A stretch of DNA of 64,000 bases from Clostridiales bacterium (GTDB lineage Bacteria; Bacillota; Clostridia; Christensenellales; UBA1242), in contig SVIS01000001.1 of NCBI GenBank assembly GCA_015069385.1, positions 17,127 to 81,126 of the forward strand. The letters are read 5' to 3'. Numbering within the stretch: position 1 is the stretch's first letter; the number at the start of each line of letters is the position of its first letter. The position numbers and the translations under genes were made by a program. The notes beneath the pieces are model-generated. The model was not told where the DNA came from and made no database searches. It saw nothing but the letters and a program-made list of their open reading frames with translations. This document shows positions 37,098 to 58,775 of this stretch, one piece after another.

Positions 37098-37173
37098 CGG
37101 GGTGTAGCGCAGTTGGTAGCGCACGTGGTTTGGGACCATGGGGCCGGGAGTTCGAGTCTCTTCACCCCGACCA
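37098..37173 (+). tRNA. tRNA-Pro (anticodon TGG), encoded CCA
   Basis: Cloverleaf read by hand. The acceptor is CGGGGTG/CACCCCG, the anticodon loop is TTTGGGA, and the T-loop is TTCGAGT. Confidence 0.9.
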
Positions 37174-37181
37174 TAATTTTT

Positions 37182-37258
37182 GGGTCTTTAGCTCAGTTGG
37201 TTAGAGCTACCGGCTCATAACCGGTTGGTCCGGGGTTCGAGTCCCTGAAGACCCACCA
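37182..37258 (+). tRNA. tRNA with CAT anticodon, probably tRNA-Ile2 (lysidine-modified) rather than elongator Met
   Basis: The acceptor is GGGTCTT/AAGACCC. The anticodon arm CCGGCTCATAACCGG followed by TTGGTC resembles the Ile2(CAU) type. CCA is encoded. Confidence 0.8.
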
Positions 37259-37302
37259 AAAATTACTTTGGTGAAGTTATGGTACTAGAAATAAAATTTT
37301 GT

Positions 37303-37379
37303 GGTTCGGTAGTTCAGCTGGTTAGAACGCTAGCCTGTCACGCTAGAGGTCGTGGGTTCGATCCCCATCCGAATCGCCA
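37303..37379 (+). tRNA. tRNA-Asp (anticodon GTC)
   Basis: Sequence GGTTCGGTAGTTCAGCTGGTTAGAAC...CCTGTCACG...GGTTCGATCCC...CCGAATCGCCA. Confidence 0.92.
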
Positions 37380-37383
37380 ATTT

Positions 37384-37459
37384 GCCTCGGTAGCTCAGTC
37401 GGTAGAGCAAGGGACTGAAAATCCCTGTGTCGGTGGTTCGATTCCGCCCCGCGGCACCA
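37384..37459 (+). tRNA. tRNA-Phe (anticodon GAA)
   Basis: Sequence GCCTCGGTAGCTCAGTCGGTAGAGC...GACTGAAAATC...GGTTCGATTCC...CCGCGGCACCA. The acceptor stem has one U4-C69 mismatch. Confidence 0.88.
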
Positions 37460-37598
37460 CGCTTAAGCGGTTAAATACTGCTTTAGGCATATTGTTAGCC
37501 AGTTTGTTGGCATTAAAAATAACACACCCTCCCCTTTTAATATATTTTTTGTGGTTTAGATTTTTGGTGTTATTTTTATCTAGTAAATACCACTTTAT

Positions 37599-37674
37599 GC
37601 TGGTGTAGCTCAATTGGCAGAGCAACTGACTTGTAATCAGTAGGTTGTTGGTTCGATTCCGATCACCAGCTCCA
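37599..37674 (+). tRNA. tRNA-Thr (anticodon TGT)
   Basis: Sequence GCTGGTGTAGCTCAATTGGCAGAGC...GACTTGTAATC...GGTTCGATTCC...CACCAGCTCCA. Confidence 0.92.
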
Positions 37675-37679
37675 ACCTT

Positions 37680-37765
37680 GGGTAGGTTGCAGAGCGGCCA
37701 AATGCTACGGACTGTAAATCCGTCGACTTACGTCTTCGGTGGTTCGAATCCACCCCTGCCCACCA
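37680..37765 (+). tRNA. tRNA-Tyr (anticodon GTA), class II with a long variable arm
   Basis: Sequence GGGTAGGTTGCAGAGCGG...GACTGTAAATC, then the long variable arm CGACTTACGTCTTCG, then GGTTCGAATCC...CCTGCCCACCA. Confidence 0.9.
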
Positions 37766-38001: not shown

Positions 38002-39357
38002 TTAAAATTTAATTGTATAAACTATACATCTTCCATTTTCACAATCTTTTGTTTCAATATCAATTATTGGAAGATTATGTTCTAATTCTTCTAAAGTAAC
38101 AGTTTTATTATCAGAAATTTCTTCCAAGTTTGATTCTATTTGTTTATCTACAAACTGGTCTTCTGAATCATTGTCATTGTGAATAGGCTTACTATTTTTC
38201 TCTATATTTGATTCATCATTTTTTTCTAGCAAAGGTTTTGGTCTTGGATATGGTCTAGGCAATGGCTCTGGTCGATCATTCCAAGTATTTATTATCTCAT
38301 CATTTTGCTGTTCATCATTGATATTGATTTGTTCTTTATCCAAATCTTTACGTGAACGATAAGTATCAACATTCTTGTATGTTCCAAAAGAATTTATATT
38401 AGGGTAGATATAGCCTTGCCTAAATGGCATCATACCGTAACCATACATATTTCCAGCATATCCCATAGGTCCATAACCTCCCATACCGTAACCATTATAT
38501 CCATAATTATTCATACCGTATTGATTAGCATAGTCCATACCATAGCCTGGGTTATAATTACGTAAATAATTATCCTTGTTATACACCGGATTATTTCTTA
38601 TATCACCATATATATTTGTTCCGGCATTTTCATAAGTATCTATATTTTTCATAATCCCTGTTTTTTGTATATCATTATCAATAGTCTTATATTCTTTACA
38701 TAAAACATTTTCTATATTTTGCAAACTACTCATAATACTTGAATAATAAGTTAACCTTGTATTTAAACCTGTTTGCAATTTTAAATATTTAAAATTCAAT
38801 TGTTCTGGTTTTGAACTATATTCATCTTTTAAACTTTGAACACTCTTGTAATAATTAGAAATTTCATTACGTGTTAAACTAATTCGAGTATTATTTGCCA
38901 TAATAGAACTATTTAATTCATTTAAAGTATTTATTTGTTCATCAGACAAGTTAGTATTATCATCAATATTTTGTTTGCATAATTCTTTTATTTGAGTACT
39001 TTTTGCATATATTTGTTTTTTTGTATTATTAAGTGAATCATTCAAGTTTATTGTAGCTAAAATATTGTTGTTTAACATAGTTAATTTAGTTATATAAGCA
39101 TTCATTGAAGTATTTTCTAACAGGTTTATAGTCTCAATATCTATATCAGTTAAATCATTTGCGTCCATAAAATCGCTTAGAAATAACGTTGAATTATCAA
39201 TATTTTGTACCTTGTCTAATGTATTAGTAATTTTCGACATGTTATTTGATATCATGCTAAGAGTAGTATTAGAATTATTTTCTGTACACCCCATTATAAA
39301 AATAGCACAAAAGATAAAACTTGAAATAATTAATACTTTTATTATTTTATTTTTCAT
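38002..39357 (-). CDS. Putative lipoprotein with an Asn-rich helical region and a Tyr/Gly/Met-rich low-complexity segment
   Basis: 451 aa. A signal peptide is followed by a lipobox (FIMGC). The segment GYGMDYANQYGMNNYGYNGYGMGGYGPMGYAGNMYGYGMMPF is encoded at about 38425-38555 by repeated CATACCGTAACCA units. A Pro-rich PEPLPRPYPRPKP stretch is also present. No family was recognised. Confidence 0.6.
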   Translation of the reverse strand: MKNKIIKVLIISSFIFCAIFIMGCTENNSNTTLSMISNNMSKITNTLDKVQNIDNSTLFLSDFMDANDLTDIDIETINLLENTSMNAYITKLTMLNNNILATINLNDSLNNTKKQIYAKSTQIKELCKQNIDDNTNLSDEQINTLNELNSSIMANNTRISLTRNEISNYYKSVQSLKDEYSSKPEQLNFKYLKLQTGLNTRLTYYSSIMSSLQNIENVLCKEYKTIDNDIQKTGIMKNIDTYENAGTNIYGDIRNNPVYNKDNYLRNYNPGYGMDYANQYGMNNYGYNGYGMGGYGPMGYAGNMYGYGMMPFRQGYIYPNINSFGTYKNVDTYRSRKDLDKEQININDEQQNDEIINTWNDRPEPLPRPYPRPKPLLEKNDESNIEKNSKPIHNDNDSEDQFVDKQIESNLEEISDNKTVTLEELEHNLPIIDIETKDCENGRCIVYTIKF

Positions 39358-41389: not shown

Positions 41390-42064
41390 ATGAAAAATAA
41401 AACAAATAAAAGTTTTATTAAAAGATTAAAACGCAAGATATTAATATGTCTTGCGGTTTTATCTTGTTTAATAGTTACTATTATATGTTATTTAAACTAT
41501 GTAGTTAATCCTGTTATTATTTCTACAAGTGCTGCTAAAGTTCGTTCGCTAAGCCAAAGAGCAGTTGAAAATGTTGTTAGGCAAGTAATACACGAAAATG
41601 TGATGTATGATACATTAGTGCTTATAATGAGAGATGAAAGCGGAAAGATAGTAACAATAAGTTCGAACTCAGCAACAATTAATATGCTTGCGTTAGAAGT
41701 TACCGAAAAAGCCCAAAACGCATTATCTCAAATGGGTGCAAATGGAATTGATATTCCTATTGGCTCTTTTAGTGGCATGCCAATTTTTACGGGTAGAGGT
41801 CCAGCTGTAAATATCAAAATGCTACCAATTGGAACGATATTTTGCAAATTTGAATCAACCTTTACAGAAGCAGGAATTAACCAAACAAATCATAGAATTT
41901 ATTTAAAAGTATACTCATCAGTTAGTGTAATTTTACCAACAGCAAATCAAACTATACAAACGGAAACTCAGTTAATGATTTGTGAAAGCATTATTGTAGG
42001 TGAAATACCTGATACATATTTACATTCAGATAGTCTTGATGAAATGATGAACTTAATTCCATAA
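41390..42064 (+). CDS. yunB: Sporulation protein YunB
   Basis: 224 aa with an N-terminal TM helix. The segment IPIGSFSGMPIFTGRGPAVNIKMLPIG...GINQTNHRIYLKV...VGEIP aligns with the B. subtilis YunB pattern. Confidence 0.75.
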   Translation: MKNKTNKSFIKRLKRKILICLAVLSCLIVTIICYLNYVVNPVIISTSAAKVRSLSQRAVENVVRQVIHENVMYDTLVLIMRDESGKIVTISSNSATINMLALEVTEKAQNALSQMGANGIDIPIGSFSGMPIFTGRGPAVNIKMLPIGTIFCKFESTFTEAGINQTNHRIYLKVYSSVSVILPTANQTIQTETQLMICESIIVGEIPDTYLHSDSLDEMMNLIP

Positions 42065-42077
42065 TTCCATGTAAAAA

Positions 42078-42110
42078 TAAAACTGCCAAAATTTATTGGC
42101 AGTTTTTTTA
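42078..42110 (+). terminator. Intrinsic terminator after yunB
   Basis: Hairpin CTGCCAA / TTGGCAG followed by TTTTTTT. Confidence 0.8.
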
Positions 42111-42146
42111 TTAGGGTAGTATTTTTAATAGAAAAAAACTTATAAC

Positions 42147-42180
42147 ATTTATTCGCAAAATACAGGTTTTGCGAATAAAT
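42147..42180. other. dif-like recombination site candidate, left copy: perfect 14-bp inverted arms around a 6-bp asymmetric core
   Basis: ATTTATTCGCAAAA-TACAGG-TTTTGCGAATAAAT. The first 17 bp are repeated exactly at 43201-43217. Confidence 0.5.
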
Positions 42181-42200
42181 ATTGTAATATAAACAAAAAA

Positions 42201-43139
42201 TTATTGTATTTTTAATATATTAACAAACTTTATTGCCATTTCATATTTAATTGTATTAAGGGGTTCTTTAAATAAAGAAATGTTTGTATTACAAATACTT
42301 TTTTTATTTTGCATAGTACTATTTTTTAAATAATTTATTATGTTTATAGTTGTAATTGTTTCATCTTGAGCAAAAAGTTCATTTGGACAATCAAATAATA
42401 AAGACTCAATAAAAATTTGATTTGGTTTTTGCTGAAAAAGATTCCAATATAAATTATTAAAAATTTTAATTTGTTGCTTAAAATAGCCTTGAGTTTTTAT
42501 ATCTTTAATTTCTATATTATCAAAACGTTCATAAAAATCAATTATTATCTTTTTAGAAGTGCTTGTATTATATAAACAAAAAGAATTCGTATCTGTTATA
42601 AATACAGGATAAATATTAATATCTACTCCAAACTCTTCTTTGCCAACAATACTAATTTTTTTTGTATCAATATATAATTTAGATTCTTTATATAATAACT
42701 TTGTTAATTCTGAGAATAAATCATAAAGCAAAACCTCTATATCATAATCTTGTAAATTTAAAACTTTTTTATTAGTTTGCTTTATAACCTGCTCACCTTT
42801 TTTCTTTCTCGATGAAAATAGTTTAAAATTAGCTTTAAAATAGTTCCAATATTGTATTAAATTATTTTTAAATTTACTATGTCTTTTGTTTACAAAATTT
42901 AACTCAATTTGCGGAGCATCAACTAGCAAAAATAAATCTAATGAAGAATTAAAATATTCTACTCCAGTAAATACTTCATTTGCAACGTATAGTTCATAGT
43001 TTATAATATAAGGATTTCTCTGTTTGATTGTATTTATAACTTCATCAATATACTGAGAAATAACATTATATGCATGATTAAATGCATTTAAATTAGTATC
43101 TTTTGAAAATTCTTTAATTAAACTTTTCATCATATTCAT
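42201..43139 (-). CDS. Hypothetical protein with weak minimal-nucleotidyltransferase (Pol-beta / SMODS-like) features
   Basis: 312 aa. FTGVEYFNSSLDLFLLVD sits at the G-S...D-x-D position but is degenerate. GVDINIYPVF fits a third-carboxylate strand. IFIESLLFDCPNELF resembles the helix that follows the NTase core in SMODS-type proteins. The assignment rests on motif resemblance only. Confidence 0.45.
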   Translation of the reverse strand: MNMMKSLIKEFSKDTNLNAFNHAYNVISQYIDEVINTIKQRNPYIINYELYVANEVFTGVEYFNSSLDLFLLVDAPQIELNFVNKRHSKFKNNLIQYWNYFKANFKLFSSRKKKGEQVIKQTNKKVLNLQDYDIEVLLYDLFSELTKLLYKESKLYIDTKKISIVGKEEFGVDINIYPVFITDTNSFCLYNTSTSKKIIIDFYERFDNIEIKDIKTQGYFKQQIKIFNNLYWNLFQQKPNQIFIESLLFDCPNELFAQDETITTINIINYLKNSTMQNKKSICNTNISLFKEPLNTIKYEMAIKFVNILKIQ

Positions 43140-43197
43140 ACTTATATTCTACAATTAGTCAAATAATTTTGTAAAGCAAATTTATTATCAAAAATAA

Positions 43198-43226
43198 TTG
43201 ATTTATTCGCAAAATACTAATATAAT
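43198..43226 (+). promoter_or_regulatory. Promoter of the recombinase gene, with the dif-like arm in its spacer
   Basis: TTGATT (43198-43203), 17 nt, TATAAT (43221-43226). The ATG at 43233 lies 7 nt after the -10 and has no SD, which implies a leaderless mRNA. Confidence 0.55.
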
Positions 43227-43234
43227 ATTGATAT
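43201..43234. other. dif-like site candidate, right copy: conserved left arm with a degenerate right arm
   Basis: ATTTATTCGCAAAA-TACTAA-TATAATATTGATAT, immediately upstream of and overlapping the recombinase start. Confidence 0.45.
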
Positions 43235-44261
43235 GAGTAATTATTTTTTTGAACGAAATAAAAAAAGCAATGAAAAACTACGACAAATTGTAAATACATT
43301 ACCCGATTTTACTATTGATTATTTTATTGGAATAGAACAAAATACTTCACCACTTACACGACTTAACTATGCAACCGATTTAGCCATTTTTTTCTATTTT
43401 CTAAGCGGAGAAATCTTGCATAAACCAATAAAATCTATTAATTTATATGACTTGAATAATATAAGATCTCGTGATATCGAATTATTTTTAAGTTTTGTTA
43501 CCAATTTTAGCAAAGATGGTATTGAATATCAAAATGGCGAGCGAGGCAAGGCAAGAAAATTATCTGCTATTAAATCACTTTTTAAATATTTGTATAAAAA
43601 CGACTATATTTCACAAGATGAAACAAGTAAAGTTAAATCACCTAAAATTCATTCTAAGCCCATTATACATTTAGATGCTAATGAAGTTTCAAAACTATTA
43701 AATGAATCTGAAAACCCAACCGAACTTAACAATCGTGAGATGGCTTTTAATAAAATTACATGTATAAGAGATACTGCTCTTTTAAGTTTGTTTCTTGGTA
43801 CAGGAATTCGTGTTAGTGAATGCGTTGGATTAAATGTTAAAGATATTGATTTCGAAAATAATGCATTTAAAATAACTAGAAAAGGTGGCAACCAAACAAT
43901 TTTATATTTTAGCGAAGAAGTAAGTGCACCACTAAAAGCATGGCTAGAAGAACGCAGTTTTTGGCTTAAAGACAAAGAACAAGAAACAGCCTTGTTTATA
44001 TCGCTTCAAAAAAAACGAATTAGTGTAAGGGCTGTTGAAAAATTAGTTAAAAAATATAGTTTAACTGCCTCTCCTTTAAAAAAAATCACCCCACATAAAC
44101 TAAGAAGTACATATGGTACTTCTTTATATCAAGAAACTGGTGATATTTACATAGTGGCTGAAGTTCTTGGTCATAAAGATGTTAACACTACAAAAAAACA
44201 CTATGCTTCAATTAGCGAAGATATAAAACGTTCTGTAGTTAATAAAGTAAAATTAAGATAA
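43233..44261 (+). CDS. Tyrosine site-specific recombinase, XerS-like single-recombinase Xer type
   Basis: 342 aa. Contains the N-terminal SAM-like domain (TRLNYATDLAIFFYFL, LSAIKSLFKYLY), then GIRVSECVGL, TRKGGNQ, and HKLRSTYGTSLY...LGHKDVNTTKKHY with the catalytic Tyr. Confidence 0.8.
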   Translation: MSNYFFERNKKSNEKLRQIVNTLPDFTIDYFIGIEQNTSPLTRLNYATDLAIFFYFLSGEILHKPIKSINLYDLNNIRSRDIELFLSFVTNFSKDGIEYQNGERGKARKLSAIKSLFKYLYKNDYISQDETSKVKSPKIHSKPIIHLDANEVSKLLNESENPTELNNREMAFNKITCIRDTALLSLFLGTGIRVSECVGLNVKDIDFENNAFKITRKGGNQTILYFSEEVSAPLKAWLEERSFWLKDKEQETALFISLQKKRISVRAVEKLVKKYSLTASPLKKITPHKLRSTYGTSLYQETGDIYIVAEVLGHKDVNTTKKHYASISEDIKRSVVNKVKLR

Positions 44262-44289
44262 AAAAAGCATACAATGTATGCTTTTTTTA
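44261..44289. terminator. Bidirectional intrinsic terminator
   Basis: Hairpin AGCATAC / GTATGCT flanked by A6 and T7, between convergent genes. Confidence 0.8.
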
Positions 44290-44856
44290 ATTTTCACCTA
44301 ATTCATTTTTTATGCTTTCTATACGCTCTACTACTTTTTTCATTTCAAGTTTTCTGTTTAACTCATCTAATTGCTTTTTTAACATAAGTTCATCATCATA
44401 ATTAGGTACTTCAGCAATGGGATCAATTGTTATTGTTGTGCTTTTATATAACTTTGTTAATTTAAAACTAACTACAAACATTATAAGTGATAACACATGA
44501 CTAACAAGCAAAATACCAATTGTTAAGTAATAACCAATATCAAGTATGAATTTAGTATAGTAAACAACAAATATTCCTGCAATTATTGCTGAAAATGTAA
44601 TGAACAATAACAAAAATAAATACTTAGCCAATCCAAATAAATTTTTAATCTTTTTTGTTTTTGAAAGTATAGTAAACAAGTAACTTAAAAGTAATAATTC
44701 TTCTGTCAACAAAGCTATATTCAGCCATAAAATACCAGTTTGTTGAATTAAATTATTTATACTATAGTAACAAACCCAAGCAATTGCGGCTAAAATAAAC
44801 AATGTTAATGCCTTATATACCGCAGATAAAATTTGTTTTTTTTGCTTATTATCCAT
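44287..44856 (-). CDS. Hypothetical multi-pass membrane protein with a C-terminal coiled coil
   Basis: About 189 aa with 5 hydrophobic helices and the tail DELMLKKQLDELNRKLEMKKVVERIESIKNELGEN. No family was recognised. Confidence 0.5.
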   Translation of the reverse strand: MDNKQKKQILSAVYKALTLFILAAIAWVCYYSINNLIQQTGILWLNIALLTEELLLLSYLFTILSKTKKIKNLFGLAKYLFLLLFITFSAIIAGIFVVYYTKFILDIGYYLTIGILLVSHVLSLIMFVVSFKLTKLYKSTTITIDPIAEVPNYDDELMLKKQLDELNRKLEMKKVVERIESIKNELGEN

Positions 44857-44986
44857 AACCCACCCCACTAATTAATTTTATTATACAATATATATATTGC
44901 TTTGTCAAATCTTGTAGATTTAAATATGTACACACTCATTTTAAATTTGTTTGCTCTTTTTATAAAACATGTTATACTTAGTTCAT

Positions 44987-45724
44987 ATGGAAAATCAAGT
45001 TGTATTAATTACCGGCGCAGCAAATGGAATAGGTGCAGCAATGGCAAAGTTATTTGCTTTAAATAACTATAAAGTTATTATTAATTATAATAATTCTGAA
45101 GTAAATGCCAAAAACCTAGTTAAAGACTTATCTTACGTTAAATTTGAGCCTTATGCTTGTAAGGCAGATGTTCAAAATGAAGATGAAATAAAAAACATGA
45201 TTAAAGATATTATTAATAATTTTGGGCATATTGACATACTTATTAATAATGCCGGGATTGCAAGTAGTAACCTTTTAATTGATGAAAATTTAGATTCAAT
45301 TCAAAAAGTAATAAACACCAACCTTGTCGGCACAATAAACTGTACTAAACATGTTTGTAAACATATGATATCGCAAGGTTATGGTAAAATAATAAACATA
45401 TCTTCAATTTGGGGCAAATATGGTGCATGTATGGAGAGTATTTATTCTGCAAGCAAAGGCGGTATTATTACTTTTACAAAAGCCATGGCAAAAGAACTTG
45501 CTTCTGCAAACATTACAGTCAATTGTATTGCACCTGGTATAGTTGAAACAAACATGATGAATGTTTATTCTTTAGAAGAAAAAAACGAATTAAAAGAACA
45601 AATTCCTTTAAATCGTTTTGCTAAACCAGAAGAAATTGCTAACCTTGCACTTTTTTTAGCAAGTGAAAAAGCTGATTATATAACTGGACAAACCATTATA
45701 ATTGATGGTGGTTTTACATTGTAA
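44987..45724 (+). CDS. fabG: Short-chain dehydrogenase/reductase, FabG-like 3-oxoacyl-ACP reductase
   Basis: Contains TGAANGIGAA, NNAG, the catalytic S...YSASK triad and PGIVETNM. The extended -10 TGTTATACT ends 8 nt before ATG 44987, so the mRNA is possibly leaderless. Confidence 0.82.
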   Translation: MENQVVLITGAANGIGAAMAKLFALNNYKVIINYNNSEVNAKNLVKDLSYVKFEPYACKADVQNEDEIKNMIKDIINNFGHIDILINNAGIASSNLLIDENLDSIQKVINTNLVGTINCTKHVCKHMISQGYGKIINISSIWGKYGACMESIYSASKGGIITFTKAMAKELASANITVNCIAPGIVETNMMNVYSLEEKNELKEQIPLNRFAKPEEIANLALFLASEKADYITGQTIIIDGGFTL

Positions 45725-45744
45725 TTATAAGAAACCTTGTAATA

Positions 45745-45776
45745 AAAAATCTTTTAAAAAAGAAGATTTTTTTATA
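45745..45776 (+). terminator. Intrinsic terminator after the fabG-like gene
   Basis: Hairpin AAATCTT / AAGATTT followed by a T-run. Confidence 0.65.
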
Positions 45777-45779
45777 TTA

Positions 45780-45855
45780 TGGAGCTACTGGGCGGGCTTG
45801 AACCGCCGACCTATTGATTACGAATCAATTGCTCTACCAACTGAGCTACAATAGC
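45780..45855 (-). tRNA. tRNA-Thr (anticodon CGT)
   Basis: Minus strand: GCTATTGTAGCTCAGTTGGTAGAGC...GATTCGTAATC...GGTTCAAGCCC...CAGTAGCTCCA. Confidence 0.9.
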
Positions 45856-45877
45856 AAATGGTGCCAAAGCACCCATT

Positions 45878-46909
45878 TTAATAAAGCCAAAAGTTCACTT
45901 TTGTATTATCATCAGAAATTGATTTAACACCCACCTTTACTTTATCATTAAGTTTAACTATTTCATATATGCGTTTATCATTTTTCTGTGTAGCATCAGA
46001 AACATGTAATAAACCTTGTGCTCCATTTTCTAATAATATAATGGCACCAAAAGGTAAAATTTTAATAACCTCTCCTTCATAAACTTCACTAAATTTTAAA
46101 GATTTAATTGCAGTTATTTTTGGGTCTTCATTATTTTGCTTTAAACCAACCGAAACTTTTTTTGTGGCTTGATCTAGTTTAATAATTCTAAATTCATATT
46201 CATTACCAACACATAGCACTTCATTTGGATTTTTTATTCTTTTATAACTAACATCACTAATATGAATAAATGCATCAACTCCATTCAAGTCAACAAAAGC
46301 ACCATATGGCATAATTTTTACTACTTTTCCAACTACCTTTTTACCTAAAAAAGCAGCATTCCAAAATAAATTTTCGGCATTTTCTTTTATTTGTTCTTTT
46401 AACATTCTTACAGAGGCAACAATTTCTTTTTTGTCTTTATTTATTTCTAAAACTATAGCTTCTAATTGTTTAGTTTTATAATAACCCATATGATGTATTT
46501 TAGTATCAATTTGTTCTTTTGGAATAAATATTTTATATGCCCCTAATTTACTAATAAGACCATAATCGTTATAACTGTTAACAACGAATATAAATGTTGA
46601 ACCAACTTTAAGAGCCTCAGCTTTAATAGATCCCGAAATTATATCTTCTGCATCAGATTTAGATACTTCAATCATTCCATCTTCCGTTTTAGTGCCAAGA
46701 ACTAACGCTTTAAATCTGTCACCAATTTTTATATCATTATAATTTTTAAAATCTTCTTTTCTTATAAAAGCGTCTGATTTTCCACCAATATTAAAAATCA
46801 CACCATCTTCTCTTTTTGCGATAACAACACCATCATATATGCTGTTTTTTTTGTAATCGGCTAATGTTTGTTCTATAGCATTTAAATTAAATTTTATATT
46901 ATCTTCCAT
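45878..46909 (-). CDS. Ribosomal protein S1-like protein with four S1 domains
   Basis: Contains repeated S1 OB-fold units (GDRFKALV, VVGKVVKIMPYGAFVDL, YEGEVIKILPFGAIILL). The start is ambiguous between ATG 46909 and TTG 46945. Confidence 0.8.
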   Translation of the reverse strand: MEDNIKFNLNAIEQTLADYKKNSIYDGVVIAKREDGVIFNIGGKSDAFIRKEDFKNYNDIKIGDRFKALVLGTKTEDGMIEVSKSDAEDIISGSIKAEALKVGSTFIFVVNSYNDYGLISKLGAYKIFIPKEQIDTKIHHMGYYKTKQLEAIVLEINKDKKEIVASVRMLKEQIKENAENLFWNAAFLGKKVVGKVVKIMPYGAFVDLNGVDAFIHISDVSYKRIKNPNEVLCVGNEYEFRIIKLDQATKKVSVGLKQNNEDPKITAIKSLKFSEVYEGEVIKILPFGAIILLENGAQGLLHVSDATQKNDKRIYEIVKLNDKVKVGVKSISDDNTKVNFWLY

Positions 46910-47019
46910 AATTTTTTTAACTCCATCTAACAAATATTGTAACAAAATATTTTATATTTTGTCTATTAAAATAAAACTTATATTTTTAATAAAAAGCAAA
47001 GAATTAACTCTTTGCTTTT

Positions 47020-47718
47020 TTATCTTAATTTTTTACAAACATTATATAAATTTTTAGGATTGTGCGAATCTTGTTTTTTATAGATGTCTGATTGCCTTTT
47101 GTTAAGATTGTTTATATCATCATCAATTGGTTTGAAACAAATAGTTAAACAACCTGTTTTATAAGCCCATTCATCGTTATAGCCATTTCCTATAAAAACA
47201 ATATTATCCTTAGTATAACCTTGCTCTTTTAATAATTCAATAAACTTTGCCTTGCCTTCATAGTCATAATCAGTAAGAATTAATTTTTGAAGTTTGCCAT
47301 TTGAGTCAAAAACACACTTATTTGCCTCGATTGCTTCAAAATATTTAACATAATCTCCCAAAACAAGTTCTATTGTATCAATAATACTACCACTCACAAT
47401 AAATAGTTTATAACCACTATTATATAACTTTAATATTAGTTCTTTGGCTCTATCTGTTAACTCGATGCTTTTCGATACAGAATATAATTGACTATAACTA
47501 AGATTTTTGTTTTTAAAAGCCTCACAAGTTAAATTAAAACATTCTTCTCTTGTTATTTTTTTATTAACAACAAATCCAACATACAATTTAGAATAAAGCG
47601 AACTTTTATCTGTTTCATATCCGCATATCTCCCATAACATTTTCCAAATGTTTTGATTCTTTTTTGTAAGAGTACCCTCAAAATCAAAAATAATTGCTTT
47701 TTGCATATTGTTCTCCAT
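47020..47718 (-). CDS. HAD-superfamily hydrolase (phosphoserine phosphatase-like subfamily IB)
   Basis: 232 aa. Motif I is IFDFEGTL, motif II is VSGS, and motif III is K...GNGYNDEW. Confidence 0.7.
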   Translation of the reverse strand: MENNMQKAIIFDFEGTLTKKNQNIWKMLWEICGYETDKSSLYSKLYVGFVVNKKITREECFNLTCEAFKNKNLSYSQLYSVSKSIELTDRAKELILKLYNSGYKLFIVSGSIIDTIELVLGDYVKYFEAIEANKCVFDSNGKLQKLILTDYDYEGKAKFIELLKEQGYTKDNIVFIGNGYNDEWAYKTGCLTICFKPIDDDINNLNKRQSDIYKKQDSHNPKNLYNVCKKLR

Positions 47719-47861
47719 ATATTCAGTATATCATAAACTTTTTCAATTTTCAATATATAAACATTTTATAAATTGTTCTGGTGGAATTATTATTTAAAAA
47801 TGAGTAGAAAAATTTCTACTCATTTTTAACTACTAATATAATTAGGAACATTCAATCTGTT

Positions 47862-48437
47862 TTAGTTTAAATTTTTTAATTCTAACATTTTTTCTCTAAT
47901 TATTTTATTTGCTTTGACAGCACCCTCCTCACCTTTATATGAATTGTCAAAGTAAATTGGTTCACCTACAACAATTTTATTAATGCCAAAAACATGAGGT
48001 TTCTTTTTAATATATAAAGGTACTATAGGTGCATTGGATTTTACGGAAAATACACTTGCACCTGCCTTAAACTCTAAAAGTGGTTCTTGTGTTTTATTTC
48101 TAGTTCCTTCTGGAAAAATTGTTAATATTTTATCTTTTTTTAAAACAGATAAACAATCTTTTATTGTGGTTAAACCTATATTTTCTCTATCAACCGCAAT
48201 TCCACCACAACATTTAAAAAACCAAGCAACAAACTTATTTTTAAAAAGTTCTTTTTTTGCTAATACATATTGTTTACGCCACATACAATTAAATAAATAT
48301 ATATAATCAATATTGCTTTTATGATTGCATACAAAGATTACCTTTCCTTTTGGAATTTTCTTTTTTCCAATCATTCTACAAGGAAATAAAATTGTAAAAG
48401 GTATTGCAGTTATTAATTTAATAAGCCAAAAAATCAT
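47862..48437 (-). CDS. plsC: 1-acyl-sn-glycerol-3-phosphate acyltransferase
   Basis: 191 aa. Contains the NHKSNIDY (HX4D) motif and the FPEGTRN motif. Confidence 0.87.
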   Translation of the reverse strand: MIFWLIKLITAIPFTILFPCRMIGKKKIPKGKVIFVCNHKSNIDYIYLFNCMWRKQYVLAKKELFKNKFVAWFFKCCGGIAVDRENIGLTTIKDCLSVLKKDKILTIFPEGTRNKTQEPLLEFKAGASVFSVKSNAPIVPLYIKKKPHVFGINKIVVGEPIYFDNSYKGEEGAVKANKIIREKMLELKNLN

Positions 48438-48451
48438 ATCTACACCTCTAA

Positions 48452-49108
48452 TTATACGAGTTTAATATATTTAATTATTTCATTAACGCTTTGCTCTATA
48501 GTATTATGCGAAGTATCAATATCTATAGCATCATCTGCCCTTTTTAAGGGACTAAACTTTCTTGTTGTATCAAGAATATCTCTATTTTTTAATGATTCAA
48601 CAACTTCTTTTAAAGTAATTTGTTGTCCGTTAGATATTAAATCTGCCATACGTCTTTGAGCCCGAATATGAATGTCACATGTAATAAAAAATTTATAGTC
48701 GGCATCAGGAAACACATGAGTACCAATATCCCTACCTTCAACAACAACATTGTTGCACAAAGCAAACTCTCTTTGAATACTAGTAACCCTTTCTCTTAAT
48801 GGTAATATTTGGGAATATAACGAAACATTTTGTTGAACAGCAATACTAGAAACATATGGCGTGCAATTAACATTATTTATAATTACAAACTGTTTTTCTT
48901 CTTCAAATAAAATTTGAATATGTATTTTTGATAGCGAATTAACAATAGCAATTTCATTATCAGGAAATATACTTTGCTGATACAGATAATAAGATATCGC
49001 TCTATATACCATACCAGTATTTAAGCATTTAAATCCAAGCTTTTTAGCCACCTTATTTGCAAGAGTGCTTTTTCCAGTGCCTGATTGCCCATCTAATGTT
49101 ATTATCAT
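48452..49108 (-). CDS. cmk: Cytidylate kinase
   Basis: 218 aa. Contains the P-loop DGQSGTGKST, then GMVYRA and EGRDIGT. Confidence 0.92.
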   Translation of the reverse strand: MIITLDGQSGTGKSTLANKVAKKLGFKCLNTGMVYRAISYYLYQQSIFPDNEIAIVNSLSKIHIQILFEEEKQFVIINNVNCTPYVSSIAVQQNVSLYSQILPLRERVTSIQREFALCNNVVVEGRDIGTHVFPDADYKFFITCDIHIRAQRRMADLISNGQQITLKEVVESLKNRDILDTTRKFSPLKRADDAIDIDTSHNTIEQSVNEIIKYIKLV

Positions 49109-49120
49109 AAAATAATACCT

Positions 49121-49369
49121 CTAACCTTTTAATCCACGTGCTTGCCTTTCCATGTTTTCAATAACAATATCATTTATTTCGCCAAGAGATGCACAATACT
49201 TTAAAACATCCCATGGCTCATTAGTATGAAAATGAATTTTTATTAATTCGCTATCCCCAACCGCAATAAGACAATCTTCTTTAAAATTAGATAAAAAATA
49301 ATCTCTAATTTTATCTTCATCTAAACCTTTTCCTTCAATAAGAAGTTGAGTATCATAAATATATTCCAT
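49121..49369 (-). CDS. Small stand-alone protein resembling the central domain of DAK2-fusion protein YloV
   Basis: 82 aa. The segment CLIAVGDSELIKIHFHTNEPWDVLKYCASLGEINDIVIENMERQ matches the GDS..VV.D...VKVHVHTN.P..VL......G.L..I.I.NM..Q pattern. Confidence 0.55.
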   Translation of the reverse strand: MEYIYDTQLLIEGKGLDEDKIRDYFLSNFKEDCLIAVGDSELIKIHFHTNEPWDVLKYCASLGEINDIVIENMERQARGLKG

Positions 49370-49416
49370 GTAAATCCCCCTTAATATATTATCATAACAT
49401 AAGAAATAATTAAAAA

Positions 49417-50631
49417 TTATTTAACACTGTTTCCAGCAACATAACCTGTAGAAAATGCAATTTGCAAATTAAAACCACCCGTTAAAGCATCGACATCTAA
49501 CACTTCACCTGCAAAATACAATCTTTTTACAAGTTTGCTTTCCATTGTTTTTGGATTAATTTCCTTTATATTAACACCACCACTTGTTATGATACCGAAA
49601 TCAAGTTTGTCCAATCCATCAAATGTAAGTGGGAACTGTTTTAATAGAGTTATAATATTGGTAAGATGAATTGCATTAAGAGTTTTAACTTTATAAGTTT
49701 TTTCAATATTTAACTTATACAAAAATGGCTCAATAAATGCTTTTGGTAATAAGCCAGCAAGCAAAGAACTAATTTGCATTTGCTTATTGTTATCAATGTC
49801 TCGCTTTAATCTTGCAAGCAATTTCTCATAAGATAAAGCCGGTTTAAAATCAATATATAAATCAACATTACTTTGTCTATTAATAAATGAACTCATAGAC
49901 AAAACTATTGGTCCGCTAATACCTTTTGAGGTGAATAGCATTTCACCGAATAATTCTTTATATAACTTTTTATTTACATATGCTTTTAAAGCAACATTTT
50001 TTAAACTAAGTCCCTCTATATTTTTAACAAAAGTATCTTTTAATAATATAGGAACTAACCCTGCTTTTAAATCAATAATTGTATGACCAAAATTTTTTGC
50101 AAAATTATAACCATCACCTGTAGAACCAGTTGCTGAATATGTTAACCCACCAGTACAACATATTGTAGCATCATAATTATTATATGTGCCACAATTTGTT
50201 ATTATGGTAAACATATTTTCTTTGTTTGTAATATGAGTAACTTTATTATCAAGTAAAATATTAACTCTATTTATAGATAAAAACTTTGTTAAAGCTTTTA
50301 TAATATCACTTGATTTATCAGACATTGGAAAAGCCCTTTCACCTCTTTCAACCTTTATTGGTGTGCCTAAATCCTCAAAAAAACTAATGGTATCATAACT
50401 ACCAAAAGCATTTAACGCACTATATAAAAACTTTGAATTATTTACAACGTTATTTAAAATATTTTCATTACTAGAACAATTAGTAACATTACAACGCCCT
50501 TTTCCAGTTATAAAAATTTTTTTACCTAGTTTGTTATTTGCTTCAAATAAATCAACTTCATTACCATTTTTTGCACATATTCCAGCAGCCATCATTCCAC
50601 TTGCACCACCACCAATAATAGCAACTCTCAT
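49417..50631 (-). CDS. NAD(P)/FAD-dependent oxidoreductase, HI0933/BaiN family flavoprotein
   Basis: 404 aa. Contains the N-terminal dinucleotide fold VAIIGGGASGMMAA, then GKGRCNVTN and the C-terminal FAGEVLDVDALTGGFNLQ. Confidence 0.85.
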   Translation of the reverse strand: MRVAIIGGGASGMMAAGICAKNGNEVDLFEANNKLGKKIFITGKGRCNVTNCSSNENILNNVVNNSKFLYSALNAFGSYDTISFFEDLGTPIKVERGERAFPMSDKSSDIIKALTKFLSINRVNILLDNKVTHITNKENMFTIITNCGTYNNYDATICCTGGLTYSATGSTGDGYNFAKNFGHTIIDLKAGLVPILLKDTFVKNIEGLSLKNVALKAYVNKKLYKELFGEMLFTSKGISGPIVLSMSSFINRQSNVDLYIDFKPALSYEKLLARLKRDIDNNKQMQISSLLAGLLPKAFIEPFLYKLNIEKTYKVKTLNAIHLTNIITLLKQFPLTFDGLDKLDFGIITSGGVNIKEINPKTMESKLVKRLYFAGEVLDVDALTGGFNLQIAFSTGYVAGNSVK

Positions 50632-51338
50632 TTACGTACCTCAAATATACTATAAAGTTCTTTTTCTGTTAAAGGACGATATTTTCCTCTATCCAATCCT
50701 CCAAGTTTTAATCCACCAATACTTACACGTTTTAGCAAAACAACATTTTTTCCAATTGCCTCAAACATTCTTCTTATTTGCCTATTCTGACCTTCATCAA
50801 TAATAACAGACATTTTAGAAATTTTATCCTTTACTCCTAATAACTCAACCTTAGCACTTGGCATACGTATGCCATTTTCAACCACACCCGCACGCAAAAC
50901 CGCAAGTTCGCCTTCTGTCATAACACCTTCAACCGTTACAATGTATTCTTTTTCTACATGGTTAGAAGGATGCATTAATTTATTTGCAAAATCACCATCA
51001 TTAGTTAACAGTAGTAATCCCTCACTATTATAATCTAATCTACCAATTGAAAATACACGTTCTGGCACTTTTACCAAGTCATATATAGTTTTTCTATTTT
51101 TTTCATCTTTTGCAGAACAAATATAGCCCTTTGGTTTGTTAAATTTATAATAAACGTATTTATTTGGCAAAGATACCTCATTACCATTAAATAATACCTT
51201 ATCTTTTTTTATATTAATATCAGTAGAAAGGTCAACAACCACTTTGCCGTTGACCTTAATTTCACCATTTAAAATATGTTGTTCTACTTTCCTTCTAGAT
51301 GCAACCCCACAAAGTGCAAGAAATTTATTTATCCTCAT
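50628..51338 (-). CDS. rluB: Pseudouridine synthase, RsuA/RluB family
   Basis: 236 aa. An S4 domain (RINKFLALCGVASRR) is followed by the catalytic motif GRLDYNSEGLLLLTNDG. Confidence 0.9.
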   Translation of the reverse strand: MRINKFLALCGVASRRKVEQHILNGEIKVNGKVVVDLSTDINIKKDKVLFNGNEVSLPNKYVYYKFNKPKGYICSAKDEKNRKTIYDLVKVPERVFSIGRLDYNSEGLLLLTNDGDFANKLMHPSNHVEKEYIVTVEGVMTEGELAVLRAGVVENGIRMPSAKVELLGVKDKISKMSVIIDEGQNRQIRRMFEAIGKNVVLLKRVSIGGLKLGGLDRGKYRPLTEKELYSIFEVRK

Positions 51339-51339
51339 T

Positions 51340-52473
51340 TTACCACTCTGAAATAATATCTTGTATACTACTCCATACTCCTATTTTTTTTACACTATTC
51401 ATTGTATAGATTTTTTCAGAAAATAGCAAGTTATTATCTAAATATATTTCTAGAGTACCAACCACTATATCTTTTAAAACTGGTGCATCAATTGAAGTTG
51501 GTAAGTTATATTTGTAAATTAATCTATCTTTTTCTTCTTTTGTTAAAGGGTACTCAAATCCTTTTTTAGTATAAGTTTTTACACTTGTTTCTTTTCCTTC
51601 ATTTACTGTTAATCTTCTAATAATTTTGTAACTAGGCAGAAGTGTAAACTTTTCATAATCATTATATGATCTAATTAATAAATCATTACTTTCTTCAAAC
51701 ATAGGTCCACAATTTAATACTACACAAACAGTTCTAAATCCCTTTCTTTCACAAGCAGATACTAAACACCTACCTGCATCGTCAGTATATCCTGTTTTTA
51801 CACCAATGCAACCATCAAGCGTATTTAAAAGTCTATTTTTATTTTTTAAGTACCTATATGTACCTTGAGTTGCACCTCTTATTCTAGTGCTTTTAGTAGT
51901 TACAATTTCTTTAAAGGTTTCATTTTCTAATGCTTTTGCAGTAATTAAAGCTAAATCATGAGCGGTTGTGTAATGATTATTTTCATCAAGCCCATGAGGA
52001 TTTTGAAAAGAAGAATTATAAGCACCACAAATATTTGCTGTTTTTTGCATAAGGTCACAAAACGCTGGAATATCTTTTGCAATATAATATGCAAGTGCTG
52101 TTGCAGCATCGTTTCCAGATGGCAACATCATTCCATATAACAATTCTCTAACTGTTATAACTTCATCGTTTTTTAAATATATACTTGTTCCAGGAACACC
52201 TACAGCACGATTATCAATTTTAATTTCCTTGTCTAAATCATTGCAATTATTTAAAACTGTTAATGCCGTTACTATTTTAGTCGTTGATGCCATTGCTACT
52301 TTATTATCTTCATTTTTAGCATATAACTTTCTTGAAGAGTCAGTCTCGATAACACACATAGATTTAGCTGAAGTTAAGGTGTCTGCCTTCACCTCATAAT
52401 CAGGTGTTCGAAAAGAAACTAAAAATAACAAAAAAATAACTAATAGTAAAATTGTAATTTTATTTCTTTTCAT
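51340..52473 (-). CDS. D-alanyl-D-alanine carboxypeptidase (S11), DacB-like
   Basis: 377 aa with a signal peptide. Contains the SxxK (ASTTKIV), SGN (PSGND) and KTG (VKTGYT) motifs. It lies upstream of ytfJ/ytfI. Confidence 0.88.
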   Translation of the reverse strand: MKRNKITILLLVIFLLFLVSFRTPDYEVKADTLTSAKSMCVIETDSSRKLYAKNEDNKVAMASTTKIVTALTVLNNCNDLDKEIKIDNRAVGVPGTSIYLKNDEVITVRELLYGMMLPSGNDAATALAYYIAKDIPAFCDLMQKTANICGAYNSSFQNPHGLDENNHYTTAHDLALITAKALENETFKEIVTTKSTRIRGATQGTYRYLKNKNRLLNTLDGCIGVKTGYTDDAGRCLVSACERKGFRTVCVVLNCGPMFEESNDLLIRSYNDYEKFTLLPSYKIIRRLTVNEGKETSVKTYTKKGFEYPLTKEEKDRLIYKYNLPTSIDAPVLKDIVVGTLEIYLDNNLLFSEKIYTMNSVKKIGVWSSIQDIISEW

Positions 52474-52864
52474 CTTTTTCCTCTTTATTATTTGACTTCA
52501 ACTTATCCACAATACTATTAACAAGATTTAAAATTGTTTGATAGGTTGTTTTATTTTCAATATCAACAAATTTTACCTCATCTTGTTGTATTACAATAAA
52601 ACCAACAGGAGTAACACTCATTCCACAACCGCTTCCACCAGCCATAGGAAAATGATTAGCAACTCTTCTTGTAGATTTATCAGCGTATTCTCCACCGCCT
52701 ACAACAAATCCCACACTTGCTTTAGATATGGGAATAACTGATGTTATGTCATCTATTCTAATTGCTTCTCCAACTATTGTATTCGTCTCCATTAAGGTTT
52801 TAACCTTATCTAAAGAAGTTTTCATAAGTTCATCTATACTTGAATTTTTACTATACTCTTTCAT
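52460..52864 (-). CDS. ytfJ: Sporulation protein YtfJ (GerW family)
   Basis: 134 aa. The segments NTIVGEAIRIDDITSVIPISKASVGFVVGGGEY and AGGSGCGMSVTPVGFIVI align with B. subtilis YtfJ. Confidence 0.85.
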   Translation of the reverse strand: MKEYSKNSSIDELMKTSLDKVKTLMETNTIVGEAIRIDDITSVIPISKASVGFVVGGGEYADKSTRRVANHFPMAGGSGCGMSVTPVGFIVIQQDEVKFVDIENKTTYQTILNLVNSIVDKLKSNNKEEKDEKK

Positions 52865-53411
52865 ATTTTTCGCTCCTTTTTATAATTAAAAACGACATAA
52901 CAAACGCATAAATAATATCAAATAAAGTTATAAAACATGTAACATGTGCTGCTATTGCAAAATATTGTCCATTAAACTCAGGAATATTTATCACTTGCAT
53001 TCTTGCTGATTTTTTTGTGTTTTTTACATATCCCATTATCATAGAAACTAATACATTAATAAACCCTGTACCCAATGCTGTTAGATATGCATCATTTAAA
53101 CCAATTCTAGAGTAAAAAACGGCTCTTTTTAATAAAATTTTTTCTTTTAATTGAACTGATAGTTGTTTTAAAAATCTTAATTGTTTTTTAGACACCTTTA
53201 ATTGTACTTCTTTTTTATCTTTTTCTGTAAATAGTATTATTTCTTTACCCTCTCGTTTAATTTTATAAGCAAAAATTTTTATAAACAATACATATATTGA
53301 TAGAACTCCAATATTATTAAGGATATCAAAAGTAACATAAACTTTACTAAATATTGGAACTATTAATAACAACAAAAAAAACACTACAATAACTGGCAAT
53401 ACTATTTGCAT
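52851..53411 (-). CDS. ytfI: Sporulation membrane protein YtfI-like (DUF2953)
   Basis: 186 aa. It has an N-terminal TM helix, sits in the conserved position upstream of ytfJ, and has hydrophobic segments at the C-terminus. Confidence 0.6.
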   Translation of the reverse strand: MQIVLPVIVVFFLLLLIVPIFSKVYVTFDILNNIGVLSIYVLFIKIFAYKIKREGKEIILFTEKDKKEVQLKVSKKQLRFLKQLSVQLKEKILLKRAVFYSRIGLNDAYLTALGTGFINVLVSMIMGYVKNTKKSARMQVINIPEFNGQYFAIAAHVTCFITLFDIIYAFVMSFLIIKRSEKYERV

Positions 53412-53458
53412 ATTATTATTGTGTTTTATTTTTGATTTTTTATTACATATAAAATAAA

Positions 53459-54124
53459 TTAATCAACTGCTTCTATTTCATCTGCCTCTATAGTTTGAAT
53501 ATCTTCACCTTTTAAAAACTCAGGAACTATTTCTTCTTGTGAAATTTCATGGTCGCGATATAAACTATCCGTATTTTGTTGAACTTCCGTTTCGGCACGA
53601 ATAAGTTTTATTCTTTCTAATAAATCTTCATATGCCGGTAATTCATCGATATCTTTCAAATTAAAGCGCTTTAAAAATTCATCAGTAGTGCCATATAAAA
53701 ATGGTTTACCAACCGCATCTTTTCTTCCAACTACTTCTATTAATTTATTATCTAATAACATTTGAATCGCATAATCAGCCGAGCGAGTATTTCTTATTTC
53801 TTCAATTTCTAATTTGGTTATAGGTTGTTTATAAGCAACAATTGCTACAGTTTCAAGAGTTGCTTTTGTTAATGCCTTCTCTCTTATAGGATTTAAAATA
53901 TCACTTACCTTATCGACATATTTCTGATTTGTACATAATTGTATTTTTTCTTTAAATTCAATTAGAATAATTCCATTATCACCAGAAAGTTCTTCTTTTA
54001 ACTGATTTATAATTTTTGTAAACTCTTTTTCAGAAAGTTCTAATTTTTCACGTATTGCTTTTTTTTCTACACCTTCACCGGCCACAAAAAGTGTGGCTTT
54101 GATTATTTCTTTAATTTCATTCAT
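53459..54124 (-). CDS. scpB: Segregation and condensation protein B
   Basis: 221 aa. Contains tandem wHTH regions (EAILFVAGE-like TLFVAGEGV, LETVAIVAYKQPITKLEIEEIRN). It overlaps scpA. Confidence 0.92.
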   Translation of the reverse strand: MNEIKEIIKATLFVAGEGVEKKAIREKLELSEKEFTKIINQLKEELSGDNGIILIEFKEKIQLCTNQKYVDKVSDILNPIREKALTKATLETVAIVAYKQPITKLEIEEIRNTRSADYAIQMLLDNKLIEVVGRKDAVGKPFLYGTTDEFLKRFNLKDIDELPAYEDLLERIKLIRAETEVQQNTDSLYRDHEISQEEIVPEFLKGEDIQTIEADEIEAVD

Positions 54125-54878
54125 TTATTGCTTTTTCCTCATTCTCATATATATCTATTTCGCCGAACAATTCACTTTGTTTTGCTTTTACAAATTGCAA
54201 TTTTAATAATTCTAATAAAGCCAAAAATATGTTTAACATTTCACTTTTTGTATTATCAACTTCAAACAAATCTGTGAATTTAATATGTTTTTTTTCTCTA
54301 ATGGTGCTTTTAATAGCAACAATTTTTTCTGCAACTGTAAATCTATCTTTAACTATTTTTTTAGGTTCGGCAGATTCTTGCTTCCGCTCAACTCTACACA
54401 ATAAATTTGCAAACGCATCTAGCAAGTTTTCTAACACCATATCTTTAAGTACAATTTTTACATTACCAGCGAGTTTATCTGGATCTTTATACAACTTATT
54501 TATATCTTCTAAACGCTGTAGTTCTTGACTAGCATCTTGAAAGATAGCATACTCTTTCATTTTAGCCTTAAGATATGTTTCAGGATCAATTTCATCATTA
54601 GTGTCTTCTGGCATTTCGACTGGTAATATTGCCTTAGATTTTATTTCTATTAACATTGAAGCAACTTGAATAAATTCACTTGCACTTTCTAAATCTAAAT
54701 CTTCTACATCTTTAATATAATCTAAATATTGTTCGGTAATGTCAGCCAAATGAATTTCATCAATATCCATTTTAGATTCTTTTACTAAATGTAATAAAAG
54801 AGCAATTGGTCCTTCAAAGTTTTCTAATTTTATACCATAACTATCAGCATAAATTTCTTCCAAATTTTCTTTTTTCAT
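54117..54878 (-). CDS. scpA: Segregation and condensation protein A (kleisin)
   Basis: Contains LENFEGPIALLLHLVKESKMDI and the C-terminal FLALLELLK. ATG 54878 overlaps the upstream TAA by 1 nt. Confidence 0.9.
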   Translation of the reverse strand: MKKENLEEIYADSYGIKLENFEGPIALLLHLVKESKMDIDEIHLADITEQYLDYIKDVEDLDLESASEFIQVASMLIEIKSKAILPVEMPEDTNDEIDPETYLKAKMKEYAIFQDASQELQRLEDINKLYKDPDKLAGNVKIVLKDMVLENLLDAFANLLCRVERKQESAEPKKIVKDRFTVAEKIVAIKSTIREKKHIKFTDLFEVDNTKSEMLNIFLALLELLKLQFVKAKQSELFGEIDIYENEEKAINE

Positions 54879-55576: not shown

Positions 55577-55613
55577 AAAATTATTATAACAAACAATTTT
55601 AATTTAATCAACA

Positions 55614-55645
55614 ATTAAAAAGACTTTTACTATCAGTAAAAGCCT
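55614..55645 (-). terminator. Intrinsic terminator after the 55655-56815 carboxypeptidase gene
   Basis: Hairpin CTTTTACT / AGTAAAAG with a T-run on the minus strand. Confidence 0.65.
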
Positions 55646-55654
55646 TTAAATAAA

Positions 55655-56815: not shown

Positions 56816-56880
56816 ATTTAGTTTCTCCCTTTAAAAGTATTGTTTACTAAATATAAAAAAATATTACAAATTTTAAAAAC

Positions 56881-57501: not shown

Positions 57502-57528
57502 ATCATATTATATGAACATTTTATATAA

Positions 57529-58737: not shown

Positions 58738-58747
58738 ACATACACCT

Positions 58748-58775
58748 TAAAAAAGACTATCATGTGATAGTCTTT
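58748..58775 (-). terminator. Intrinsic terminator after recN
   Basis: Hairpin AGACTATCA / TGATAGTCT with a T-run on the minus strand. Confidence 0.7.

Follow-up and report, generated by a model that had tools for sequence, protein, structure and literature searches.

Only three single-recombinase Xer systems, those of XerS, XerH and XerL, are listed for bacteria (PMC5357621; the 2022 Legionella paper, PMC9765430). XerS/difSL operates in streptococci and in lactococci (Le Bourgeois 2007; Nolivos 2010, PMC2965235; reviewed in PMC5357621) on a site of 31 bp, in which the two arms are unequal and the central region is long (PMC5357621), and XerH/difH is the system of Helicobacter and Campylobacter (Bebel 2016, PMC5241119). 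Here, we describe a module that resembles both of these systems and is a member of neither. The module consists of a gene for an Xer-family tyrosine recombinase and a 34-bp palindrome lying ~1 kb away, and is carried on a 64,000-nucleotide stretch of DNA (hereafter the window) from an uncultured Clostridiales bacterium of the Christensenellales (GenBank assembly GCA_015069385.1, contig SVIS01000001.1, positions 17,127 to 81,126 of the forward strand). On the basis of sequence comparisons, we interpret the palindrome as dif, the site at which the XerS-like recombinase would resolve chromosome dimers. We consider it quite probable that the window spans the replichore junction, or terminus region, of a low-GC, spore-forming, uncultured member of the Clostridia; its G+C content is ~28% and it carries sporulation genes together with an ornate, large, extremophilic (OLE) RNA. 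The features on which this reading is built are the following:

42,147-42,180, no strand assigned: dif-like site, a perfect 14-6-14 palindrome of 34 bp, ATTTATTCGCAAAA-TACAGG-TTTTGCGAATAAAT
43,201-43,217, + strand: lone dif arm with 3 nt of the spacer (ATTTATTCGCAAAATAC), 17 nt, an exact copy of the left arm
43,233-44,261, + strand: Xer-family tyrosine recombinase, XerS-like, 342 aa
44,259-44,289, no strand assigned: bidirectional terminator hairpin between xer and a convergent membrane-protein gene
2,516-5,314, + strand: FtsK DNA translocase that includes the DNA-reading gamma domain, NCBIfam FtsK E = 2.7e-116

As in XerS/difSL, there would be one tyrosine recombinase of ~350 aa whose gene is linked to the site as a terminus module, the arms are of the type ...GAAAA / TTTTC..., and the host is a Firmicute equipped with FtsK. 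The best NCBIfam match of the protein is also to XerS (NF003462), over its full length and ahead of the XerC, XerA and XerD models. However, the score of 201.1 bits falls under the cutoff for XerS, which is 267, and the host belongs to the Clostridia. In addition, the site is a perfect palindrome with at least 9 mismatches to difSL, and it can lie as far as 4 kb from xer with serS or a nucleotidyltransferase (NTase)-fold gene in between. With XerH/difH, the module shares what is presumably a single recombinase, a site near the gene, a spacer of the 6-bp class and arms containing A4/T4. It differs in that the similarity to XerH (PDB 5jjv, 4e-13) is weaker than that to XerD or XerA, in that the best difH match has 9 mismatches, and in phylum. 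XerD, XerA and XerH are the closest structures in the PDB, the best being XerD (1a0p, 8e-24).

With the XerC/XerD (CodV/RipX) systems and their 28-bp dif sites, the module has in common the recombinase superfamily, the catalytic residues and a proposed role at the terminus. The protein nevertheless scores far below the XerC and XerD cutoffs (173 vs 335 for TIGR02224; 159 vs 330 for TIGR02225), and the window holds no dif of B. subtilis or E. coli type: the canonical B. subtilis dif, E. coli dif, difSL and difH sequences all have at least 9 mismatches to any position in it at best. The two identical arms, moreover, argue that one protein species, not two, binds both halves of the site. XerL/dif of the Legionellales (PMC9765430) is a single-recombinase system, as the present one presumably is, with long uninterrupted inverted repeats, and its site, too, was revealed by an integrated mobile element; but xerL and dif lie >400 kb apart in Legionella (PMC9765430) and are linked here, and the taxon is unrelated (the comparison covers site and arrangement, not the recombinase sequences). 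Neither the site nor any XerS-like system of Clostridia was found described in full-text literature searches, and a search by the arm sequences retrieved unrelated primers only.

The palindrome and its recombinase

The protein has a Pfam Phage_integrase domain (PF00589, E = 2.8e-35) and a SAM-like N domain, and its six catalytic residues, R193, K217, H288, R291, H314 and Y324, are invariant across 19 homologues. Its gene is headed by the lone arm, which overlaps the predicted xer promoter (-35 from 43,198; -10 at 43,221-43,226). In ~24 related loci, a lone arm likewise precedes the start of xer by 50-90 nt (rarely by as much as ~280 nt), in many cases directly next to a TTGAC box, and the full site takes this position in loci where it is equally near xer. 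The lone arm is probably an autoregulatory operator through which the recombinase would repress its own gene.

The palindrome is intergenic, lying between the convergent yunB (+), which ends at 42,064 and has a terminator of its own, and the NTase-fold gene (-), which ends at 42,201; it is the one full site within the window. An earlier note on this DNA had placed both an Xer-type recombinase and a dif-like palindrome at 43-45 kb. The recombinase is where the note put it, but the conserved palindrome lies to its left, still inside the broader 42-46 kb interval that the note had flagged. The palindrome at 44,259-44,289 is an ordinary bidirectional terminator and not the conserved site.

The site in related loci

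The conserved site was defined from 80 loci in species-representative genomes of uncultured or poorly characterised Clostridia-class bacteria, picked via homologue alignment. The contigs were read 10 kb either side of xer for the motif TTCGYAAAA-N6-TTTTRCGAA with no more than 2 mismatches. The motif is present in 60 of the 80 loci, always upstream of xer at a distance of 42 to 4,130 nt, and as a single copy in 59 of these 60, the remaining locus (L029) having a second, weaker copy 340 nt further upstream. Shuffled sequence yielded 0-1 matches in 1.34 Mb, compared with 61 observed. The consensus is AACTATTCGYAAAA-N6-TTTTRCGAATAGTT, and symmetric arm positions co-vary (e.g. T:A vs G:C at one pair). 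The spacer consensus is asymmetric, N-R-C-A-R-S (61 sites, those of the 60 related loci and of the window), and reads toward xer in 27 loci but in the opposite direction in the other 34, so that the polarity of the site relative to xer is not fixed.

These comparisons bear on a reading in which the palindrome is a transcription terminator or a repressor operator only, and not a recombination site. The palindrome lies just past the stop codon of the - strand NTase-fold gene and folds as a hairpin (-17 kcal/mol, z = -5). On the - strand, a T-run follows a few bases past the extended stem, so that the palindrome could terminate the adjacent gene; the arm over the xer promoter also fits an operator. 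Neither function, however, accounts for arms whose sequence, beyond their pairing, is retained across genomes of 25-57% GC with the spacer fixed at 6 nt, for a site that stays upstream of xer regardless of the neighbouring gene, or for the phages described below, which sit precisely at the site with arm and spacer duplicated. We therefore regard a terminator or operator role alone as very improbable, and read the palindrome as a recombination site.

Integrase-less single-stranded DNA (ssDNA) phages that borrow the host Xer machinery are well known for XerCD (PMC3091885; PMC5357621). Four comparable elements were found at the site in relatives. Two are 5.2-5.3-kb inserts of higher G+C that abut the site (L046, 516-5855; L008, 64-5302); they encode a Microviridae major capsid protein F (E = 4e-172 and 7e-154, respectively), a Chlamydia-phage scaffold protein and Rep, and on their far side the left arm and spacer recur as a direct copy. 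The third is a 6.4-kb inovirus-like element (L073, 3139-9507) that encodes Rep, shows a weak match to Zot and has an identical copy of 27 nt as its boundary, and the fourth, on an IMG/VR contig (L113, 3570-7704), has the same xer-dif-microvirus arrangement. In addition, the exact site occurs in 21 viral contigs, some of them 4-7 kb long with an inovirus-like Rep. We read the prophages as integrase-less, with the limit that not every small open reading frame (ORF) was screened for a recombinase, and no such element is present within the window itself. Like the integrative mobile elements exploiting Xer (IMEX) represented by CTX phage, Enterobacteria gokushovirus prophages and Bacteroidetes microvirus proviruses (PMC3091885; bioRxiv 10.1101/743518), the four are ssDNA phages lying between a site and a partial copy of it; unlike them, they are hosted by a XerS-like module and not by XerCD. 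Because they are bounded by the site and by a copy of arm and spacer, the four elements are indirect evidence that the site is recombined in vivo in relatives.

More distant homologues of the recombinase, at 35-47% identity, are found on large Clostridia plasmids and in phage-labelled records. A phage or plasmid origin of the recombinase was considered and set aside, these homologues being distant only (<=47% identity). Among the phage-labelled records is an unverified, unannotated 102-kb human faecal scaffold deposited as "Bacteriophage sp." (L090, MT835478.1), on which the same site lies 1.4 kb upstream of an xer gene with 47% identity and which may be a bacterial scaffold filed as phage. 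On the 144-kb plasmid pNP144 of Butyrivibrio hungatei (L091), a second tyrosine recombinase gene adjoins that of a 42%-identical recombinase, and a related 14-6-14 palindrome, ATTATTGCGTTAAA-CATATC-TTTAGCGCAATAAT, lies 125 nt upstream of the latter (~5860-5893).

Gene orientation and base skew around the site

The site coincides with a change in gene orientation. The two arms and the short zone between them comprise the following features, where GC3 skew denotes the G-C skew at third codon positions, read on the coding strand:

1-42,146, mostly + strand: left arm, with pnp (3' end), ftsK, rimO, pgsA, recA, miaB, mutS, mutL, miaA, nifS, thiI, rny, spoVAC/D/E and yunB
37,098-37,765, + strand: six-tRNA cluster
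42,201-43,139, - strand: CD-NTase (cGAS/DncV-like nucleotidyltransferase)-fold protein, 312 aa, weak family matches; GC3 skew +0.385 (right-replichore polarity)
44,287-44,868, - strand: membrane protein, 193 aa, no family match; GC3 skew +0.436
44,969-45,724, + strand: short-chain dehydrogenase, NCBIfam YmfI (elongation factor P 5-aminopentanone reductase) 257.8 bits, cutoff 238
45,780-45,855, - strand: tRNA-Thr(CGT)
45,878-63,987, - strand (20/20 genes): right arm, with a gene for an S1-domain protein, HAD, plsC, cmk, rluB, dacB-like, ytfJ, scpB, scpA, spoIVB, recN, argR-like and proS
61,896-62,494, - strand: OLE RNA, full-length, 358 bits

Left of 42.1 kb, 23 genes are on the + strand and 11 on the - strand (26.0 vs 12.5 kb of coding sequence), the minus-strand exceptions including PBP1A, lexA, pheST and the sigF operon. 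Right of 45.8 kb, no gene is on the + strand and 20 are on the - strand (left vs right, Fisher p = 3e-7), and the four genes of the 42.2-45.7 kb zone alternate in the order -, +, -, +. The pattern extends 8-10 kb past both ends of the window, with plsX-rnc-smc-ftsY-rpsO-pnp all on + to the left and spoIIIAA-AH, nusB, xseAB and proS all on - to the right. Family searches bear out the gene names that the earlier note had assigned in both arms, as well as its tRNA cluster on the + strand, its tRNA-Thr(CGT) and large non-coding RNA (the OLE RNA) on the - strand, and its uniform - strand from 45.8 kb to the window end. Its statement that most genes on the left are on the + strand holds as a majority of 68% (23/34), not as nearly all. 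In B. subtilis, the recA/mutS/spoIIIE and recN/spoIVB/scpAB/cmk blocks lie on opposite replichores, each directed toward the terminus.

The same convergence is found in relatives. Convergence could be assessed in 41 loci that carry the site, one of them the window, each having 4 kb or more to either side. G-C skew is positive on the left and negative on the right in 35 of these 41, and the coding strands converge on the site in 33, as compared with none of 9 loci that lack the site (Fisher p = 2e-6). When genes are split by strand, pooled GC3 skew is -0.098 for + vs -0.196 for - genes on the left and -0.173 for + vs -0.054 for - genes on the right, which points to a strand-linked, replicative component converging on the site. 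The gene rny lies on the left in + orientation in 8 loci and on the right in - orientation in 9, directed at the site in every case. In one relative (L115, ENA ERZ27287548 k141_238669; 75% Xer identity), a ~12-kb dif-xer segment is inverted with respect to the pheST/nifS-thiI-rny block, as judged against positions 25,183-45,724 of the window; the inversion spans the terminus, yet the genes still point at the site. Since the flanking genes vary by lineage and nonetheless face the site, the convergence is not merely an inherited gene order.

It might still be supposed that the flip is a local boundary, formed by convergent operons or an inversion breakpoint within one replichore, and that the recombinase serves a mobile element as its integrase or resolvase. 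The homologues on plasmids and in phage-labelled records would fit such an origin, as would the inversions of the dif-xer segment that do occur among relatives. Yet the co-oriented blocks run for at least 50 kb to the left and at least 28 kb to the right, the neighbours all have housekeeping or sporulation functions, genes of phages or of conjugation being absent from the window, and loci without the site show no convergence. A single full site per locus leaves no partner for inversion or excision, and the best "phage" match is the unverified faecal scaffold, with the same site upstream of its xer. Taken together, these observations make a local boundary highly unlikely, and a replichore junction marked by dif remains the reading that we prefer.

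Base composition gives a less symmetrical picture. Cumulative G-C over all sites reaches its maximum at 42,440, within a plateau at 41.7-46 kb; by codon position, however, the all-site skew, which is positive over the left arm, largely tracks the coding strand, and we accordingly downgraded it as proof of a terminus. In the right arm, GC3 skew is +0.405 for the - genes and +0.48 in the extension beyond the window, and the intergenic skew is -0.278. In the left arm, GC3 skew is 0.034 for + genes and 0.054 for - genes, with 0.028 in intergenic DNA and -0.005 in the 8-kb left extension. In the 42.2-45.8 kb zone, GC3 skew is -0.31 for + genes and +0.41 for - genes; the opposite signs imply that skew in this zone follows the DNA strand and not transcription. 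Because the polarity of the zone is that of the right arm, the mutational boundary lies at ~42.1 kb and not at 45.8 kb. The GC3 skew of the dehydrogenase gene within it (-0.234) fits a lagging-strand gene of the right replichore. The earlier note had predicted a skew extremum at ~43-45 kb; an all-site extremum exists on this contig, but it lies at 42,440, and the skew at neutral sites is one-sided.

Besides the T-run beside the palindrome, several observations weigh against our interpretation. The DNA comes from a 130.8-kb contig of JGI metagenome 3300031555 and not from a closed replicon, and skew at third codon positions and in intergenic DNA has no clean sign flip at the site. In bins of ~250 sites (standard error ~0.06), neutral skew ranges from about -0.35 to about -0.5 over the right arm; immediately to the left of the site it is ~-0.12, changing to ~0 at 16-36 kb and +0.05 to +0.15 at 1-16 kb. 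A relative with the same gene order (L114) repeats this asymmetry, and L115 shows its mirror image. Finally, a scan for polar motifs that orient FtsK revealed none with demonstrable convergence on the site: the canonical FtsK-orienting polar sequences (KOPS) and SpoIIIE recognition sequences (SRS) are absent, GAGAAGGG and GGGNAGGG are essentially absent, GAAGAAG is skewed on the left side only, and the skewed k-mers found de novo mirror the coding-strand bias.

These skew data are the ground for a reading in which the palindrome is indeed dif, but replication forks meet at another place, lying tens of kb or farther leftward, the flip being a dimer-resolution and orientation junction. Neutral skew is strong on the right only, with a zero crossing ~15-25 kb left of the site and weak values to at least 50 kb left; L114 and L115 repeat and mirror the pattern; the - genes left of the site are not C-rich in several close relatives; and dif and the termination point need not coincide, as argued by Kono et al. 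2011 (PMC3025954). Against this stand the gene orientations, a long-term record of fork direction that converges exactly at the site both here and in 33 of the 41 site-bearing loci, the synonymous skew pooled over relatives, which also converges on it, and the noise in the left-side skew profile. We judge distant fork meeting to be rather unlikely, although it is the alternative to which we give the most weight.

A further proposal, which we consider doubtful, is that termination is one-sided relative to dif, such that the fork of one replichore always reaches the site and the other flank, over at least 50 kb, is copied about equally in both directions. Copying of one flank both ways would produce a step in synonymous skew at dif instead of a sign flip. 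As an observation in its own right, synonymous-site skew is ~0.25-0.45 on one side of the site and near zero for at least 50 kb on the other, and it is the replichore with nifS-thiI-rny that is skew-neutral, in the window as well as in the relative with the inverted dif-xer segment. That the same side is neutral in both hints at asymmetric termination or a dif-linked barrier as opposed to simple fork collision.

Overall, we favour a terminus region that contains a dif/Xer module. The earlier note had placed the terminus, and with it dimer resolution, at 43-45 kb; the terminus region with its module is supported, and the site and the orientation junction are shifted to 42.15 kb. If the module acts as XerS and XerH do, one site would be bound by two copies of one and the same recombinase, both 14-nt arms being identical. 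When sister chromosomes are dimeric, FtsK would pump DNA at the septum until two sites meet, whereupon four recombinase subunits would carry out strand exchange over the 6-bp spacer, so resolving the dimer. Catalysis, dependence on FtsK, the status of sole recombinase, autoregulation and the nearby meeting of forks are inferences. Xer recombination would be expected to have as its motor and activator an FtsK that contains a gamma domain, and Pfam FtsK_alpha, FtsK_SpoIIIE and FtsK_gamma domains are recorded for a gene identical to the ftsK of the window.

Neighbouring genes and implications of the site

The NTase-fold gene between the site and xer belongs to a small family of 49 clusters. Its AlphaFold2 model has a predicted local distance difference test (pLDDT) score of 86, the Foldseek match is to the CD-NTase CdnE (6e0k, E = 2e-10), and in the family alignment Phe occupies the second catalytic carboxylate position of the D-x-D motif; the protein is possibly catalytically inactive. 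A role in cyclic-oligonucleotide-based anti-phage signalling (CBASS) is unsupported, given the Phe and the lack of an effector gene nearby. In relatives, the genes between site and xer include the NTase-fold gene in 13 loci and serS in 12, both on the - strand. We also considered the NTase-fold gene as IMEX-like cargo enclosed by the site and the 17-nt arm. This was rejected because the NTase gene and serS are conserved - strand neighbours, and because the lone arm is common near the promoter even where no gene intervenes; we regard both genes as normal members of the right arm.

Three other observations concern genes of the window. For the dehydrogenase at 44,969-45,724, the YmfI model is only narrowly ahead of FabG models. 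A 199-aa membrane-like ORF (61,212-61,811) follows the OLE RNA. On the left arm, a 451-aa ORF on the - strand (38,002-39,357) is rich in N, Y and G, has a lipoprotein-like N-terminal signal and is without a family match; its position is conserved in three relatives (L006, L114 and L115).

A replication terminus is in itself ordinary and would cause little surprise. Of broader consequence is that the recombinase and its 34-bp site appear to be the means by which many uncultured Clostridia of the gut, forming a large group, resolve chromosome dimers; this group comprises Christensenellales-like bacteria and related metagenome-assembled genomes (MAGs). The prophages found at the site sit in relatives within the Clostridia, a class absent from the hosts of microvirus prophages named in a 2022 summary, which lists only Bacteroidales, Hyphomicrobiales and Enterobacteriaceae (PMC9753089). 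The consensus site could be used to mark termini in fragmented MAGs and to help check assemblies around the terminus, and it could link hosts to the gut Microviridae and inovirus-like phages that carry the site or are integrated at it.

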